Positions 34,867 to 41,419 of a stretch of DNA of 64,000 nt are shown here, in pieces (positions within the stretch are counted from its first letter, which is position 1; every line of letters starts with the position of its first letter). Both the position numbers and the translations under genes were made by a program. The DNA comes from Fibrobacteria bacterium. GTDB lineage: Bacteria; Fibrobacterota; Fibrobacteria; UBA11236. Below the pieces are notes generated by a model that ran no database searches, was not told the origin of the DNA, and worked only from the letters and a program-made list of their open reading frames with translations. The stretch is taken from the NCBI GenBank assembly GCA_043732185.1, contig JAYTHY010000136.1, positions 2,326 to 66,325 on the forward strand, read 5' to 3'.

Positions 34867-35274
34867 ATGGAACAACCCGGTCATGCCATTCCAAAATCTA
34901 CCATTGTGGGCACCTATATTGGTTTATTGGTGCTGGCGGCTTTGATGCTCGCCATTTCGCGTATTCCAGTTGAGCGTCTTTCCATTGACTGGATCAATCT
35001 GCATGCCGTAAAAACCTGCGTGGTTTTGCTTATAGCCTTTACGATGGCGTCGATTATCGCCTTGTATTTAATGGGTTTGCGTTACGACCATAAATTTCTG
35101 AATATTACCATCTTCCTATCCAATTTTGCCTTCCTGCTCATTTTCGTACTTTTTACCTGGGCGGATACTTCCTTCCGTGAAAAAGTGGATCCCGTATTCG
35201 GAAAAAGTGTTGAATTTGAATCGCCTGTAAAGGTTGATTCCGCCGGTGAAGAAAGTCACGCACCTGCCCCTTAA
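34867..35274 (+). CDS. Cytochrome c oxidase subunit IV-like small membrane protein
   Basis: About 135 aa with 3 TM helices, immediately after ctaE. The start is set at the Met after the ctaE stop. Confidence 0.5.
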   Translation: MEQPGHAIPKSTIVGTYIGLLVLAALMLAISRIPVERLSIDWINLHAVKTCVVLLIAFTMASIIALYLMGLRYDHKFLNITIFLSNFAFLLIFVLFTWADTSFREKVDPVFGKSVEFESPVKVDSAGEESHAPAP

Positions 35275-35944
35275 AACTGAAGTTGTTGCCGGATCAGACC
35301 CTACTTTTTTTAAGGGTTCCTTCTTGGTTTTCCTGCTATTTCTTCCAGCCTTTTTGCTGATTATTCTTGCCATTTTGTTAGCCATGCAATACAAGCAATT
35401 GCGGGCATTTGTTTCTCCTCAGGCCATTGAACTATTAACCGTACCCGTTTCGCCGGAAGCCCAAGTAGCAGTGGTGGCCAAGCTGCACACCTTTTTTACA
35501 AATGCGCGTTCCGATAGTTTATCAGACACATTGGCCCTGTCCATAGTCGAGGTAAACCATCTCGTTCGGTCCAGTTCGTCCTTGGAAGCATTACACCTTG
35601 ATTACCATATGGATATTCAGGACACCCTGCTGATAGCCCATAACAGTTTGCCGGTGGACCGATTAAATGGCGTTCTATCCCTCCTTGCTAAAACCTTACG
35701 TGTGAAGGGCTTCCTCAATTCGGAAATGCGTGGCTATATCACTGTTTCAAAATCCGGGGTAAATATTATACCCGTTTCAGCAACCATGAATGGAGTAGCC
35801 GCGCCGATTTCCGTCTTGAATCGCAAAGGCGGAATTGATCCTTCCGAATGGGTCGCGGATCGAGACTTTTACAACCGTTGCTTGGCCCGCTTGTCCGGTA
35901 TTGAGATTCGAAATGGCTCTCTGCTTTTTATTAAACGGCCTTGA
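35234..35944 (+). CDS. Hypothetical membrane protein trailing the oxidase operon
   Basis: One strongly hydrophobic helix (FLVFLLFLPAFLLIILAILLA). The start is uncertain and the 3' end converges on and overlaps the ECF sigma gene. Confidence 0.35.
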   Translation: MIPPVKKVTHLPLKTEVVAGSDPTFFKGSFLVFLLFLPAFLLIILAILLAMQYKQLRAFVSPQAIELLTVPVSPEAQVAVVAKLHTFFTNARSDSLSDTLALSIVEVNHLVRSSSSLEALHLDYHMDIQDTLLIAHNSLPVDRLNGVLSLLAKTLRVKGFLNSEMRGYITVSKSGVNIIPVSATMNGVAAPISVLNRKGGIDPSEWVADRDFYNRCLARLSGIEIRNGSLLFIKRP

Positions 35945-36444
35945 GCCTGCATGTCCCGCTTAAACCGAGTGAGCCTGCGCGTAATGGCAACCCTGGATAC
36001 GCCCATATGTACGGCAATTTCTCGGTGATTGAGTCCTTGTTCCAGGCTCAAGTGTAAAATCTCTTTCAGCTTCCCGCGTACTTTTGGGAGGGCTTTTTCC
36101 AAGCGCATGCGGTGCAAAACATGGTCTTCCTCCGGCTCCCGGAAGTTGCCTATCGTATCTTCATAACCCATTTGACTTCGCTTGTCCATTTGGTCGCGAT
36201 GCTTTTTAATTCTACTGAAACAGTCGTATTTGGCGATGGTGCCAATCCAGGTGAGGGGATCGCATTTCCATTCAAAATCGTTCCACGCACGAAAGGCTTT
36301 AATAAAGACATCATGTGAGGCATCTCTGGCTTCTTCCCTGTCTTTCAAAAAATATTGGCAGATACCCAAAACCTTTTGATGGTACCTGCTATAAAGTAAT
36401 CCTTGCCAATCCGCACTATTTTTCAATTCTTCATTAGCCGTCAT
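35869..36444 (-). CDS. ECF-subfamily RNA polymerase sigma-70 factor
   Basis: Sigma-2 region (HDVFIKAFRAW) and sigma-4 HTH (LNHREIAVHMGVSRVAITRRL). Confidence 0.8.
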   Translation of the reverse strand: MTANEELKNSADWQGLLYSRYHQKVLGICQYFLKDREEARDASHDVFIKAFRAWNDFEWKCDPLTWIGTIAKYDCFSRIKKHRDQMDKRSQMGYEDTIGNFREPEEDHVLHRMRLEKALPKVRGKLKEILHLSLEQGLNHREIAVHMGVSRVAITRRLTRFKRDMQAQGRLIKSREPFRISIPDKRAKQRL

Positions 36445-36598
36445 TGCTTTTTTTTCCTTTAGGATCCAGGTTTGGAAAAGGGATCCAGAAGCTTAGACGG
36501 AAAAAATATTTAGGAATGTAGTCAGGCTTTTAGGCGTGCCTATGTAAAGCGCTCCATTTTGTGAGCGCGAAGGTTAGGTGATGGAAAAGAAGGAAACT

Positions 36599-37612
36599 TT
36601 ATCTCGTTGCAGGAACTTGGTCGAGAAGGTCCTGGTTTCCATCAGGCCAGCACAATCCGGAAGCGGGTCGGCACGGGAAATGGAAATGCAAGAGAACGGG
36701 TCCATCAGGGGGCGGAGTGCTCCGATTATTTTTAGAGGTCGCCACAGTGACTTCTGCAAGCACGGTAACGGCTGGAACTAAATATTCGCCGTCCCGTGAA
36801 TTGGCTGAACCCAATTTTTCTTTGGTTACGACGTAGCTTTCAAAGATGCGCACGGGCTTGATGAAGCGAATGGCGAGATTATCTGGATGGAAAGGATAGG
36901 TATAGGTTCGAGTGTGGGTTCGCGATTTCTCCCATTTTTTAAGGCTATCCGCCACCATTTCTTTGGACGGGATTTGCTGTGAACCTGTTTCAACCAACTC
37001 TGGATCCCGGAAAGAAAAGGACTGAAGTGCGCCACCAGCACCGTAGGCCACACGAATTTGCATCGCATCCCCGAGTACAATGCGGCCATCTACTTTTTTT
37101 AGATAGCGACCTATGTAGTAGGCCGGTACAGCCGGACCAACGCTATCTTTGTGTTCCGGATCTCGCTTTTGGACCATGGTTATTTCATAATTGGCAAAAA
37201 CCAGGTTTTCAATTTTTTCTCTCAGGACGGATTTTACAAGCATATCCGATTTAAGGTGGATTGACGAATCCGGAACAACATCTTTTTGGGTGAGTGCCGG
37301 AACCATTTCATTGGTAAAGGCGAACTCGGATGTCGCAGGTTCATATGCCAAGCGTGCACCAACCCTGTCATGCCAACTGGTATTGACCCCGGATATTTGG
37401 GGCTTACCCATTGGCCGAAGTTTAAAGGTTGCCAATAGTGATTTGATATTTTCTGGATTTAAGGGACGCGGCGCAATTTGGTAATATTTTGCGGTCACAT
37501 ATTCACCGGGTTGGGATTGCACTACCGGGGCAGTAGGTGCCGCATTCGAAAGGGCCACAAAAAGGCCGGCCAATGTCCATATCGAAATTTGCTTTTCCAC
37601 TTTTCGCTCCAT
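36599..37612 (-). CDS. Hypothetical secreted protein (operon member C)
   Basis: Signal peptide. No recognisable domain. Confidence 0.5.
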   Translation of the reverse strand: MERKVEKQISIWTLAGLFVALSNAAPTAPVVQSQPGEYVTAKYYQIAPRPLNPENIKSLLATFKLRPMGKPQISGVNTSWHDRVGARLAYEPATSEFAFTNEMVPALTQKDVVPDSSIHLKSDMLVKSVLREKIENLVFANYEITMVQKRDPEHKDSVGPAVPAYYIGRYLKKVDGRIVLGDAMQIRVAYGAGGALQSFSFRDPELVETGSQQIPSKEMVADSLKKWEKSRTHTRTYTYPFHPDNLAIRFIKPVRIFESYVVTKEKLGSANSRDGEYLVPAVTVLAEVTVATSKNNRSTPPPDGPVLLHFHFPCRPASGLCWPDGNQDLLDQVPATR

Positions 37613-37658
37613 AAATGAATGAGGGGACGTTTATTCTAGAATGCGAATCATTCTGACC

Positions 37659-38492
37659 TTAGTACTGCGGTGTTCCAATAATCCGGGAGTAATAATTTCC
37701 GCTATTGGCGATTGCCAAAGCGTAATCGTGGTTCACGTTCCGGAAGGTGGTGCTGCAATGGTCCGGGCTTCCCGCAAATACTTGTGCGGATAGGCAACCG
37801 GGTTCCAAACCTCTTGTGGGGTACAGATGCTTGTATCCATAGTTGGCCTCGGCATCGAAAAAGGCGTTGTAGAGATTTTTTTCGCGAAATGTCCAGTTGA
37901 GCCAAAAATCATTGAACAAATCCCAGCTTAGATTATTGTCGTAGATCAGAGACTTAAAACTGAGCATGGCTTTTAGGCCACGAAAGGAAGTTTGCCAGGC
38001 ATCGGCAGGGGGTGTGGCCGTTTTGAAAATGGAACAGCCGTGGGCCATAAACCAACGGGTGTATCCGGTTCCAAGCGATAAATTATTGGGTCCCACTGCA
38101 CCATAGTTGACACCTGCTCCAAGGTAGAGATTGCCGCTGATTCCGTGACCACCATAATACACGAAATCGCAATATTCACGGTTGCCTTGGGTATTGCTTC
38201 CAGAAGTTATTGCGGCTTTGGTGACGTACGTATTCCGTTTGTCCAACGCAAATGTTGGTCCAGTGGTGCCCAAGCCTGGGGAGGCGTTCAGGCTGGAGAA
38301 GGGTGGTACATTGACATTGGCGCCAGCAAAAAAGTTTTGGCCCATAGCAATTTGATAGCTGAGATTGGGGAGACCACCGCCATTGCCTCCATAGTCGTCA
38401 ATTGTATAGGTGCCAATATCCAAGCTGGGTGGAAAGGCCGATACCAATACCGTTAACGCACCAATGGCAATCAAACCTTTGGAAATATTCAT
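37659..38492 (-). CDS. Hypothetical secreted protein with a possible clan-CD-like His-Gly / Cys dyad (operon member B)
   Basis: Signal peptide. DFVYYGGHG, then WFMAHGCS about 37 residues later. The peptidase interpretation is a hypothesis only. Confidence 0.5.
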   Translation of the reverse strand: MNISKGLIAIGALTVLVSAFPPSLDIGTYTIDDYGGNGGGLPNLSYQIAMGQNFFAGANVNVPPFSSLNASPGLGTTGPTFALDKRNTYVTKAAITSGSNTQGNREYCDFVYYGGHGISGNLYLGAGVNYGAVGPNNLSLGTGYTRWFMAHGCSIFKTATPPADAWQTSFRGLKAMLSFKSLIYDNNLSWDLFNDFWLNWTFREKNLYNAFFDAEANYGYKHLYPTRGLEPGCLSAQVFAGSPDHCSTTFRNVNHDYALAIANSGNYYSRIIGTPQY

Positions 38493-38534
38493 CGTCGCAT
38501 CCTCTCTTCATTTTTATTCTCAACCAACAGGCTT

Positions 38535-39440
38535 CTAAAGTCCATGGGTTCGGAGTGTAAGGGTGTTGTTGGTGTGCATGGACAGAATCTTTTTGCCAAT
38601 TTCGAACTCTTTTGGTTGCATCTGGTCTAGTTCTACTACTTCATATATTTCCACTTCACTGCCATGCTGCCCGGTTGAATTGGGGCTTAGCCTTAACAAT
38701 CGTAGGGGATAATGGCCTTCCGGTAAGGGTCCAAGCCGAAGGGAATCCAGTTTTACCGGCCAATAAAAGGGCGAGCCAGGAATATAGAAACTGAGAACAG
38801 AATTATTTAGAGTTGTAGACTGCGTCACGATATTTGTCGCATTACACTTTCCCTGGAAATAGCGTTCTGTTCGATCCAAAAAGTTCGAATTTTCCGGAGT
38901 TAAAGAAGTTGCAGGATCAATAAGCTGGCCGCTAGATGTCGAGTATTTGAATCCCATTAAAAACGATTTACCCCAGCGAGTAGACACAATCAGTATGTTG
39001 AAATCTAAAGTGTCACGGCCCTGTGTAAGCAGGGGAGACAGGCTGGCGGAGGAAAGCGTCACCGTATCCAGCTCCTGAAAAGCAATCGTTACCTGTGGTA
39101 CGGAATCCAAGGAGGGAATGGCACTGCTTTTAAAAATCGTCAGGGAGCCGTTGATTTTAAAGCCCACTGCCTGAAAGGTGGAGTCCAAGAAGGAGAATAA
39201 AAATTTTAAATCTTTGCCAGATTTCCATTTAACCTGTATGGTGGTGTCGCCAACCAAATCAGGAGGCCAGGTTGTTCGCGACGATGCACCGGCCAGCAAA
39301 TCTTGATCTTCAACTTTTGAATCTGTTTTTGAATCGGAACCAGGTAGACTTGTGTCCGGAGCCATACAGCCAAGGACAAACAGGCCGAATACCCAAGTGG
39401 AGACATACTTTTTTCCAGATTTCCAGCGGATTGTTTTCAA
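38535..39440 (-). CDS. Hypothetical lipoprotein (operon member A)
   Basis: Lipobox VFGLFVLGC. No recognisable domain. Confidence 0.5.
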   Translation of the reverse strand: MKTIRWKSGKKYVSTWVFGLFVLGCMAPDTSLPGSDSKTDSKVEDQDLLAGASSRTTWPPDLVGDTTIQVKWKSGKDLKFLFSFLDSTFQAVGFKINGSLTIFKSSAIPSLDSVPQVTIAFQELDTVTLSSASLSPLLTQGRDTLDFNILIVSTRWGKSFLMGFKYSTSSGQLIDPATSLTPENSNFLDRTERYFQGKCNATNIVTQSTTLNNSVLSFYIPGSPFYWPVKLDSLRLGPLPEGHYPLRLLRLSPNSTGQHGSEVEIYEVVELDQMQPKEFEIGKKILSMHTNNTLTLRTHGL

Positions 39441-39455
39441 GGTTGCTTTCCTCGT

Positions 39456-40349
39456 TCAACGGGTATTGGGAATGATTTGAAATACCAAGGTGCAGACTTT
39501 ATCCGTTTTTTTATCCTTGGCGACAACTTCTTGAATTTCATCATCGAGCGCCGCCACTTTTTCACGGATGATTTTTAGGCTTTCATTGGATACGGTCAAC
39601 ACTTGGGTATTGTAGGCTTTGAATTTTCGAAATCCATCCTCGACAATACTGGAACTGAGATCATGAATTTGGCGGTTATAGCCTAAGGCAACTTCCCCCT
39701 GGAAGGCATCACCGGAAATCAGCAAATTGTTGGTGAGTGCGTACCCGGTATCTGACTTTCGAATCATTTGGAGATCGACGAGCAGATCAATGGCTTCCTG
39801 CACCTGGTCGGCGGAAATGGGAGGGTAGATTTCCTTGGCGATATCTGCAGGGCGAACTTTTTTTTGATCCAGCCCTAGGTAGTTGAAAACGACAGCGTAA
39901 TACCATTTGGCGTAGTACTTGTGCTGATTCTCCCGCACGATCCAGGCTTTGGAATTCCTAAATTTTGAAAGCTTGCCGAACAAAAAATTCCTTTCCAGGT
40001 CTGACCTGGCCTGGTTATGCTGAACCAGAACATCAAAATACTGGTTTTCCTTTTCGCCCAGGGAGAGAGCGGCCGCACAGCGAACCCGCAACTTGGGACC
40101 CAAATCCCGCTTGCCTTGCATCACGGAATAGAGCAGCGCCGTCGACCCAAAATATTTCAGGGAAAACGCCCGCTTGGAAAACTTGCTATTGCCTTTCTGT
40201 TTCCATTTCATAAAATCGGTCAAAAAGAGCCTGTATTCCAAATACTGGAACAGGCTAGGCTTGATCGAGTTGTTATGTGAAATAAGAGTGTTCAAATGGT
40301 CCGTCCGGTAACCGGAATTTTGCCTAGGCAGCAAAAATTCCAACTCCAA
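39456..40349 (-). CDS. TIGR02147/DUF4423-like protein (Fibrobacter/FCB-group conserved hypothetical family)
   Basis: N-terminal YLEYRLFLTDFMKWKQKGNSKFSKRAFSLKYFGSTALLYSVMQGKRDLG fits the family pattern as I recall it. 15-nt gap to the downstream lipoprotein gene. Confidence 0.45.
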   Translation of the reverse strand: MELEFLLPRQNSGYRTDHLNTLISHNNSIKPSLFQYLEYRLFLTDFMKWKQKGNSKFSKRAFSLKYFGSTALLYSVMQGKRDLGPKLRVRCAAALSLGEKENQYFDVLVQHNQARSDLERNFLFGKLSKFRNSKAWIVRENQHKYYAKWYYAVVFNYLGLDQKKVRPADIAKEIYPPISADQVQEAIDLLVDLQMIRKSDTGYALTNNLLISGDAFQGEVALGYNRQIHDLSSSIVEDGFRKFKAYNTQVLTVSNESLKIIREKVAALDDEIQEVVAKDKKTDKVCTLVFQIIPNTR

Positions 40350-40411
40350 CCTAAGGAATCGGAACTAAACCTACATATTGGACCAAGAAAGCGAAAGGCC
40401 TTGCGCTTGGC

Positions 40412-41419
40412 TTACTCCACCGTCCACGTGCTGCCGGAGTTGAATAGTTTGTCCAAGCTAGGAGGATTTTTGGCGGCTGCCGTATCGATCTGAGCGCGCA
40501 TGGCATCCGCATAGGAAGGCCTATCGACATTACGGAACACGCCCACCGGAACGGGGTACTCGGGATGGGACAATCGGGAGAGGTGAAAACCCAATGCACC
40601 GGTAGATTCCTTTTCATCATGCACCAGGATCTCAGAATCTAAGGGGTTCACCTTGGTCTTGATGGCCATCTTGTCCAGAACCAGAGCTTTTTCCAATTCT
40701 TTGCCATAGCGCATGGGCTGACCATGCTTTAAATAGAGTAGGGTATCTGGGCGGGTTGGGCGGCCATAGTACGGCTCGTGAATTTTATCCGCAAAGATAA
40801 TGCAGTTCTGGAGCACTTCAACCAATGCCGTTCCTTTATAAGCCGCAGCTGCAGCAAATACTTCACCCATATGTTTCACGTCATTGTCGGAGGTCCGGGC
40901 CACAAATCCGGCTTCAGCTCCAATGGCCATGCTGATAGGTGACAACGGCAAGTCTACGGAGCCCATGGGTGTGGAGGGGCTCACCGTCCCAACGCCGGAG
41001 GTGGGGGAATACTGGCCTTTGGTTAATCCATAGATTTTATTGTTGAACAGGATAATCTTGAGATCCATGTTTCGACGCAGGGCGTGGATAAAATGGTTGC
41101 CGCCAATGCTGAGCGCGTCGCCGTCTCCGGTAATGACCCAAACTTGGAGATTGGGGTTGCTGAGCTTGACTCCAGTTGAAATGGCGGGTGCCCGACCATG
41201 GATGGTATGAAATCCATAGGTGTTCATATAGTACGGGAAGCGACTGGAACAGCCGATGCCGGATACGAACACAAAATTTTCCTTGGGAAGGCCCAAAGTT
41301 GGCAGAATGCCTTGCATGGTGGACAAAATGGAATAATCTCCGCAGCCCGGACACCATCGAATGGCGGAAGGTGACGCAAAGTCTTTACGCGAGAGCGGTT
41401 CGGCCGTAGTCGTTGTCAT
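40412..41419 (-). CDS. korB: 2-oxoacid:ferredoxin oxidoreductase beta subunit (TPP-binding)
   Basis: CPGCGDYSIL and a TPP-binding GDG block. Confidence 0.85.
   Translation of the reverse strand: MTTTTAEPLSRKDFASPSAIRWCPGCGDYSILSTMQGILPTLGLPKENFVFVSGIGCSSRFPYYMNTYGFHTIHGRAPAISTGVKLSNPNLQVWVITGDGDALSIGGNHFIHALRRNMDLKIILFNNKIYGLTKGQYSPTSGVGTVSPSTPMGSVDLPLSPISMAIGAEAGFVARTSDNDVKHMGEVFAAAAAYKGTALVEVLQNCIIFADKIHEPYYGRPTRPDTLLYLKHGQPMRYGKELEKALVLDKMAIKTKVNPLDSEILVHDEKESTGALGFHLSRLSHPEYPVPVGVFRNVDRPSYADAMRAQIDTAAAKNPPSLDKLFNSGSTWTVE

Follow-up and report, generated by a model that had tools for sequence, protein, structure and literature searches.

A 64,000-nucleotide stretch of DNA from an uncultured Fibrobacteria genome (hereafter the window) carries four closely spaced minus-strand genes, R, A, B and C, which probably constitute one operon, and we interpret the B-C core of this operon, with evenly balanced confidence, as a cysteine protease of clan CD and a trans-acting chaperone-inhibitor of the PepSY type. 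B would be a small exported cysteine protease with the clan CD fold, with about 255 residues left once the signal peptide is cleaved and with no prodomain of its own. By analogy with known enzyme-inhibitor pairs, C, an exported protein with PepSY/YycI-like domains, probably binds B as its chaperone-inhibitor and would maintain B in a folded, inactive state up to the point at which C is removed by a signal or by proteolysis. The remaining members would be R, a cytoplasmic TIGR02147 protein that is probably a regulator and was added in the Fibrobacteria lineage, and A, a lineage-specific lipoprotein that may act as anchor or substrate. If this is correct, B and its relatives are secreted proteases of the caspase fold that make up a rare stand-alone family under separate PepSY/YycI-like control, and the PepSY chaperone-inhibitor principle reaches clan CD cysteine proteases, beyond metalloprotease propeptides and the SleB-YpeB pair. 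It would also provide testable roles for the short DUF6345 subfamily, for the C family and, more weakly, for TIGR02147.

Gene organisation and the proteins R and A

The open reading frames of the locus follow the order R, A, B, C and sigma on the minus strand, with korB ending 62 nt upstream of R. The intergenic gaps are 15 nt (R-A), 42 nt (A-B), 46 nt (B-C) and 154 nt (C-sigma), which confirms the original prediction of four tightly packed genes between korAB and an ECF sigma gene, including its three short distances, and corrects only the last, which had been given as 155 nt. The 3′ end of sigma overlaps by 76 nt with a convergent gene, orf236, encoding a neighbouring membrane protein of the cox cluster. 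In some relatives the R-A and A-B gaps become overlaps, and they point to co-transcription; transcription of R-A-B-C would start at a promoter between korB and R. Rfam and tRNA scans of the region returned nothing, the number of sites in a sigma-70 promoter and terminator scan was not above that in shuffled sequence, and neither the window nor the loci examined contain a paralogue of any of the four operon genes.

R (39456..40349, minus strand) is annotated as a protein of 297 amino acids without a signal peptide. Its true start is probably the TTG codon at 40295, a position common to the orthologues, which would yield a protein of 279 residues. Profile searches uphold the proposed membership of the TIGR02147/DUF4423 family, with scores of 183.6 bits against TIGR02147 (cut-off 50), covering residues 32–296, and 54.9 bits against the DUF4423 model PF14394 (cut-off 30). 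Among the four operon genes R shows the highest conservation, with 62–74% identity in divergent loci. R alone had no match among PDB sequences, and the R profile gave a weak match to a MotA winged-helix-like domain (E 0.8). An XRE-type helix-turn-helix suspected in R was not confirmed, the hhalign comparison with the SinR HTH being negative (probability 2%). A DNA-binding domain was thus confirmed by none of these comparisons, and the regulator role originally given to R is putative. Our literature search found no characterised member of the TIGR02147 family.

A (38535..39440, minus strand) encodes a fast-evolving protein of 301 amino acids with the lipobox L-G-C25. Reading of the sequences shows that the N-terminus contains FVLG-C25 and that [LVAG]-G-C is kept in seven of the eight homologues, the eighth (P0104) being without its N-terminus. 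Searches with A of Pfam, NCBIfam and PDB sequences gave no match. Its identity in divergent loci is only 28–35%; in most of them B reaches 57–62%.

The B-C pair

B (37659..38492, minus strand) is a protein of 277 amino acids whose N-terminal segment resembles a signal peptide. It matches the Pfam family DUF6345 (PF19872) with 39.8 bits over residues 107–215, above the gathering threshold of 26.9. Canonical DUF6345 members score 65–200 bits and are long multidomain proteins with PKD, CARDB or CBM96 modules, whereas B belongs to a divergent subfamily of short, stand-alone proteins of about 270 residues paired with C. At 50% identity, only 108 clusters of this short stand-alone family were recovered from 1.84 billion representative proteins. 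A structural model of medium confidence (pLDDT 74) predicts that B adopts the caspase-hemoglobinase alpha/beta/alpha fold of clan CD, to which caspases and metacaspases (C14), legumain (C13), gingipains (C25), clostripain (C11), CHAT proteins and separase belong. The predicted fold is accompanied by a candidate catalytic pair of the clan CD type, each residue being located at the C-terminal end of a hydrophobic beta-strand: His116 (38145..38147, minus strand), in the sequence FVYYGG-H116-G117 that follows strand 110–114, and Cys153 (38034..38036, minus strand), in WFMAHG-C153 after strand 147–151. Both the His-Gly dipeptide and the Cys are at least 90% conserved in 49 diverse sequences and belong to the very small set of residues retained throughout the family, as is typical of an active enzyme.

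B has no sequence-profile relationship to the established clan CD families. Comparison with the Pfam C11, C13, C14, C25, C50 and CHAT families produced nothing at E≤1, and profile searches of PDB sequences retrieved no clan CD protein; the narrow profile gave only an insignificant match to DUF4347 (E 1.1) and the wide profile nothing relevant. B also differs from these families in being very small, in having no prodomain, Ig or other accessory domain, and in relying on a plain signal peptide for export.

C (36599..37612, minus strand) encodes a protein of 337 amino acids, again with a signal-peptide-like N-terminal segment as judged by reading the sequence. Its C-terminal motif HFHFPC....GLCWPDG, which includes two cysteines, is invariant. 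C had no match among PDB sequences, and no family at E≤1 in NCBIfam or in Pfam, including PepSY, YycH and YycI. At the level of predicted structure, C consists of tandem domains with a helix on an antiparallel sheet (cystatin-like), for which the best characterised matches are YycI and YycH; the C-terminal domain of YpeB and the propeptides of fungalysin and vibriolysin are also structural hits. YycI and YycH match C as well as or better than true PepSY propeptides do. The description of A, B and C as one lipoprotein and two secreted proteins holds, given the lipobox of A and the N-termini of B and C, but the accompanying claim that none contains a nameable domain survives only for A, since B has the DUF6345 match and the clan CD fold and C a fold resembling YycI, YpeB and PepSY.

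The partnership of B and C is suggested by loci far removed from the window. Next to very distant B homologues, which are found in unrelated contexts, a C homologue follows B in five of eight loci, in each case without R, A or sigma; in two of the eight (L024 and L028), no homology to C was detectable in the gene that comes next. This recurrence indicates that B and C form the functional core. The arrangement resembles that of SleB and YpeB in Bacillus, where YpeB is a PepSY chaperone-inhibitor of SleB encoded in the same operon, a task that PepSY/FTP propeptides perform for M4 and M36 metalloproteases. As with SleB-YpeB, the gene for the putative enzyme is directly followed by one for an exported tandem PepSY-like protein. 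The putative enzyme partner here, however, has a caspase fold and is neither a lytic transglycosylase nor a metalloprotease, and C, unlike YpeB, has no membrane anchor and escapes the Pfam PepSY model.

The products of the walRK operon that C resembles, YycI and YycH, regulate the histidine kinase WalK through their N-terminal membrane anchor, and this resemblance allows a different interpretation. B could be a non-catalytic scaffold or binding protein with a caspase fold and C an accessory regulator of the YycH/YycI type, acting on a membrane sensor or on cell-envelope enzymes, with no protease-inhibitor relationship between them. Besides the structural matches of C, the absence of His or Cys from the B family members P0149, P0151 and P0173 indicates that non-catalytic roles do exist in the family, and genes with REC domains lie upstream of B-C in two loci (L017 and L022). 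The locus itself contains no kinase, though, the signal peptide of C looks cleavable rather than like the anchor of YycH or YycI, and the family-wide retention of His-Gly and Cys among so few conserved positions argues against a scaffold, so that we judge this interpretation to be improbable and retain that of a protease with its chaperone-inhibitor. A role for the caspase-like protein in a CHAT/caspase defence cascade, such as that of type III CRISPR systems with CHAT, was also considered and rejected: PADLOC models gave no significant match to the five proteins, the only hit being HamC with C (E 0.039, 11.6 bits), and the locus is free of defence genes.

Synteny, cis elements and the ECF sigma gene

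All 18 related Fibrobacteria loci that we compared share the order korAB-R-A-B-C-sigma-cox, with R beside A-B-C in each, and bear out the conservation of gene order that had been set as a check. Since it is part of a much longer korAB-cox synteny in one Fibrobacteria lineage, the order proves little by itself. It does not on its own demonstrate the self-contained module that had been proposed. Outside this lineage only B-C recurs, without R, A and sigma.

The sigma gene (35869..36444, minus strand) encodes an ECF (group IV) sigma-70 factor of 191 amino acids, with matches to Sigma70_r2 (45 bits), Sigma70_r4_2 (25.3 bits) and TIGR02937 sigma70-ECF (74.3 bits, cut-off 42.9). The C-sigma gap contains two conserved elements. 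The upstream element, boxA (GCTCACAAAATGGAGCGCTTT; 36546..36566, minus strand), is located 102–122 nt before the sigma ATG and is quasi-palindromic, with a potential hairpin GCGCTC-N8-GAGCGC. A count over both strands of the 616 kb made up by the window and the loci gives 22 occurrences of its 17-nt core, always on the coding strand, and all 22 copies can be placed: 14 lie upstream of sigma, one in the window and the others in 13 loci, and eight loci have one in the leader of R, although the R-proximal copy is degenerate or truncated in the window's own clade. Pairing of the hairpin is kept in 86% of cells, but the covariation is not significant, being reached by 47 of 500 shuffles, and does not separate an RNA hairpin from a palindromic operator. 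The second element, boxB (ATATTTTTTCCGTC; 36496..36509, minus strand), lies 52–65 nt upstream of the sigma ATG and is promoter-like, its CGTC resembling an ECF −10 element. An exact boxB is present in the window and nine loci, and L010 has a divergent version at the same offset; the element always starts 57 nt past the start of boxA, the intervening sequence being variable. We know of almost no regulatory genetics in the phylum Fibrobacterota, and boxA and boxB offer concrete cis elements for studying the control of an ECF sigma factor without an anti-sigma factor in this group.

The window contains no other exact copy of boxB, and the absence of a copy before R, A, B or C led us to reject the idea of an operon driven by sigma through that same promoter; sigma would form a separate transcription unit under its own boxB. 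As boxA is common to the upstream region of sigma and the leader of R in most relatives, the data suggest co-regulation rather than transcription of the operon by sigma. The sigma factor, which had been called dedicated, is indeed a separate ECF sigma gene, but its tie to the operon is circumstantial, boxA being the sole link.

It may be asked whether anything other than position unites these genes. Apart from the B-C pair, R, A and sigma could be unrelated and kept adjacent by lineage-wide synteny, as the conservation of korAB-R-A-B-C-sigma-cox as a single block in all related loci and the composition of the remote B-C loci would allow. The close or overlapping R-A and A-B junctions and the linkage of R and sigma by boxA speak against this, as does the distribution of inserts among the relatives, which lie between korB and R or after sigma and never form independent genes inside R-A-B-C, the sole exception being L015, in which the repeat region of C has become a gene of its own. 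We consider mere adjacency unlikely and favour an operon built around the B-C core.

Most ECF sigma factors, though not all, are encoded together with a cognate anti-sigma factor. As predicted, domain searches recognised none here, whether in C, orf236 or any neighbour, or in the Na+/H+ exchanger genes that L012, L015 and L020 carry as insertions after sigma. An envelope signalling module, in which A, B and C serve as an extracytoplasmic proteolytic switch that controls the adjacent orphan sigma factor, in essence the self-contained module originally proposed, would bring to mind DdvA of Myxococcus xanthus, a transmembrane anti-sigma factor with a periplasmic TPR-CHAT domain that acts on the ECF sigma factor DdvS. 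B differs from DdvA in being soluble, in having no anti-sigma domain and in possessing a complete His/Cys pair. Such a module is unlikely, since the locus encodes no transmembrane component to relay a signal to a cytoplasmic sigma factor (orf236 being a cox-cluster membrane protein), no sigma gene accompanies the remote B-C pairs, the adjacency of sigma is embedded in the long korAB-cox synteny and boxB is missing from the operon. A more elaborate version, in which protease B, the PepSY-like latch C and A as anchor or substrate form a caspase-type switch that is relayed to sigma without a classical anti-sigma factor, with R as a DNA- or RNA-binding factor on the shared boxA, appears to us very doubtful; if true, it would provide the first function for the TIGR02147 and short DUF6345 families.

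For the operon itself, a candidate promoter element is present in the korB-R spacer (40365..40378, minus strand). This box, ATATGTAGGTTTAG in the window and TATGTAACTTTG in orthologues, resembles the Bacteroidetes-type −7 motif TAnnTTTG, for which enrichment upstream of genes in the window was not convincing; the box is conserved in six related loci (L004, L009, L010, L011, L012 and L014).

Gene layout and conserved order

A block of five ORFs is bounded by korB (40412..41419) on one side and by the convergent end of the cox cluster on the other, and the ORF listing places all of them on the minus strand, in agreement with the original prediction: R (39456..40349, 297 aa), the lipoprotein gene A (38535..39440, 301 aa), the genes for the exported proteins B (37659..38492, 277 aa) and C (36599..37612, 337 aa), and the ECF sigma gene (35869..36444, 191 aa), separated by gaps of 15, 42, 46 and 154 nt, respectively. 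The family assignments proposed for the outer two genes also held, with R matching TIGR02147 (183.6 bits against a cut-off of 50) and containing a DUF4423 domain, and sigma matching Sigma70_r2, Sigma70_r4 and TIGR02937 (74.3 bits). GC content over the region is ~0.46-0.50 and its base composition is unremarkable; RNA gene scans detected no RNA genes there, and defence-system models gave no significant match for R, A, B, C or sigma. The window belongs to an uncultured Fibrobacteria lineage, as indicated by a 12-kb contig that is nearly identical to it (L001) and by two closely related Fibrobacteria MAGs with B identities of 97% and 88%.

The order korA-korB-R-A-B-C-sigma, followed by convergent orf236 and cox, was the same in all loci compared (14 GTDB-genome loci plus L001, L019, L020 and the P0112 locus) and is kept down to 34% B identity. 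Gene order is therefore conserved in relatives as anticipated, but since this synteny is long-range and confined to one lineage, it does not on its own demonstrate a module. Identities at the divergent loci were 83-90% for korA, 66-73% for sigma, 62-74% for R, 34-62% (mostly 57-62%) for B, 32-52% for C and only 28-35% for A. The fast evolution of A suggests that this lipoprotein may be surface-exposed. A has a conserved lipobox (L-G-C25) and the conserved motifs DLLAGxSSxTxWPP and FYIPGSPxxW, and Pfam, NCBIfam and PDB sequence searches found no family for it.

The B-C pair

The decisive test was provided by very distant B homologues (~20-30% identity) in unrelated contexts. The gene directly after the B homologue is a C homologue in L016, L017, L022, L023 and L027 (GC 0.41-0.62), all of which lack kor, cox, R, A and sigma genes; the remote C homology is backed by hhalign probabilities of 97.6% and 87.7% and HMM scores of 58, 42, 36, 28 and 22 bits. 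This recurrence in unrelated loci lacking R, A and sigma identifies B-C as the conserved core and R, A and sigma as lineage-specific additions. In L024 and L028 the B homologue is followed by a secreted protein of similar size that is not detectably related to C by its profile, and represents either an extremely diverged C or a protein that has replaced C as partner; both proteins (L024 4333..5340; L028 2694..3380) have a KxKSxKHRSG motif. L025 is too short for the gene after B to be judged. Two unrelated remote loci carry a receiver-domain (REC) gene upstream of B-C (L017 976..1746; L022 4283..5011), where Fibrobacteria have the TIGR02147 gene, and their REC proteins are mutually homologous (BLAST 3e-8).

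B passes the Pfam DUF6345 model weakly (39.8 bits; cut-off 26.9) and represents a short stand-alone subfamily, in contrast to canonical DUF6345 proteins, whose long chains include PKD, CARDB or CBM96 modules. Exhaustive HMMER searching of 1.84 billion representative proteins returned only 108 clusters at E<=1e-3. Only eight columns were at least 90% conserved in an alignment of 49 sequences (17-58% identity), H116, G117, G141, C153, F170, G172 and W200 among them, and His or Cys is lost in three family members. The figures listed for the fold comparison of B were 13.4 for SAVED-CHAT, 12.3 for both metacaspase-9 and caspase-8, 11.8 for gingipain RgpB, 11.6 for asparaginyl endopeptidase (legumain family), 10.5 for the CHAT domain of the anti-sigma DdvA, 10.4 for clostripain and 9.0 for separase. 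Clan CD is said to have been defined, by Chen et al. in 1998, by a His-Gly and a Cys, each behind a hydrophobic strand. B has this arrangement, strand 110-114 being followed by FVYYGG-H116-G117 and strand 147-151 by WFMAHG-C153. Pfam and PDB-sequence profile searches tied B to none of C11, C13, C14, C25 or CHAT, so the modelled protein is assigned to clan CD at the fold level only.

The C-terminus of B (37659..37676) reads G-x-P-Q-Y in 17 of 18 close homologues, a conserved aromatic end that recalls the OMP C-terminal signals sensed by PDZ proteases; in the remote locus L024 the second gene after the B homologue encodes a PDZ-domain protein. P0082, a TPR-repeat protein on an 820-nt ENA contig, matches the B C-terminus at 76% identity over its final 76 residues and is probably an assembly chimera or fragment fusion.

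No sequence family was found for C in Pfam, NCBIfam or PDB sequence searches. Its predicted model (pLDDT 80.2, pTM 0.73) had 5coz (E 5e-8), YycI (1e-6), fungalysin propeptide (3e-3) and YpeB (4e-3) as top Foldseek matches, and on this model C is PepSY/YycI-like. Orthologues share an invariant HFHFPC....GLCWPDG motif close to the C-terminus. Low-complexity extensions of 100-300 aa with KDS..A..K-type repeats occur in C orthologues (L012 10738..12687; L015 12315..13931; P0090; P0092), one of them mislabelled CheA by one source; in L015 the repeats have a 538-aa gene of their own, lying between C and sigma, and the window C is entirely without such an extension.

Proposed action of the pair

B is most likely a prodomain-less exported cysteine protease, and C would most likely act as its chaperone-inhibitor in trans. 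Precedents are SleB-YpeB, in which the enzyme is enclosed and inhibited by a PepSY protein from its own operon, and the PepSY-type propeptides of secreted metalloproteases. For A, a role as anchor of the pair or as a substrate is possible. That A, B and C signal to sigma is a less likely possibility, with the periplasmic CHAT domain of the anti-sigma DdvA as a precedent, but the locus encodes no transmembrane relay and the remote B-C pairs have no sigma. The hope of a categorically new envelope system was not borne out. Our literature search found no published characterisation of DUF6345 or TIGR02147, the names appearing only in proteome tables, and, within its incomplete coverage, no earlier report that the short DUF6345 subfamily has a clan CD fold or is paired with a PepSY/YycI-like protein.

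Conserved elements around R and sigma

Within the C-sigma spacer, two elements are kept across loci amid variable sequence: boxA (36546..36566, GCTCACAAAATGGAGCGCTTT), which has 6-bp hairpin potential, and boxB (36496..36509, ATATTTTTTCCGTC), whose CGTC resembles an ECF -10 element. Their start-to-start distance is 57 nt in 11/11 sequences with both matched. The boxA core has 22 copies on the two strands of 616 kb, 14 upstream of sigma and eight in the R leader, all on the coding strand and none elsewhere; no boxB copy was found before R, A, B or C. Sigma would be transcribed separately, and the common boxA suggests that it is co-regulated with the R unit in most relatives; the R-proximal boxA is truncated in the window's own clade. 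Pairing potential of boxA is high (86% of cells) and covariation is not significant, and the element could be either an operator bound by a protein or a hairpin in the RNA. A conserved box between korB and R (40365..40378; ATATGTAGGTTTAG in the window) resembles the Bacteroidetes -7 motif, which shows no clear enrichment in front of the window's genes.

R is a highly conserved cytoplasmic protein that may plausibly have a regulatory role. Where it starts is uncertain; its orthologues share a TTG equivalent to window position 40295, giving 279 aa. The 5'-most 18 codons of the longest R ORF (40296..40349) probably belong to the leader, not to the coding sequence, and hold the R-proximal boxA remnant (TTGGAGTTGGAATT) and a small palindrome, TCCGGTAACCGGA. 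Sigma orthologues in L012 (13010..13660) and L015 (14197..14889) have degradation tag-like C-terminal tails of ~40 aa ending ...LIAA; the window sigma has a shorter, different tail.

The plus-strand gene orf236 (35234..35944), encoding a 236-aa single-pass membrane protein without family or anti-sigma domain, is the last gene of the cox cluster and shares 76 nt with the 3' end of sigma, which is convergent to it. Because every related locus keeps it beside the small cox4-like gene, orf236 may encode a cytochrome oxidase accessory protein.
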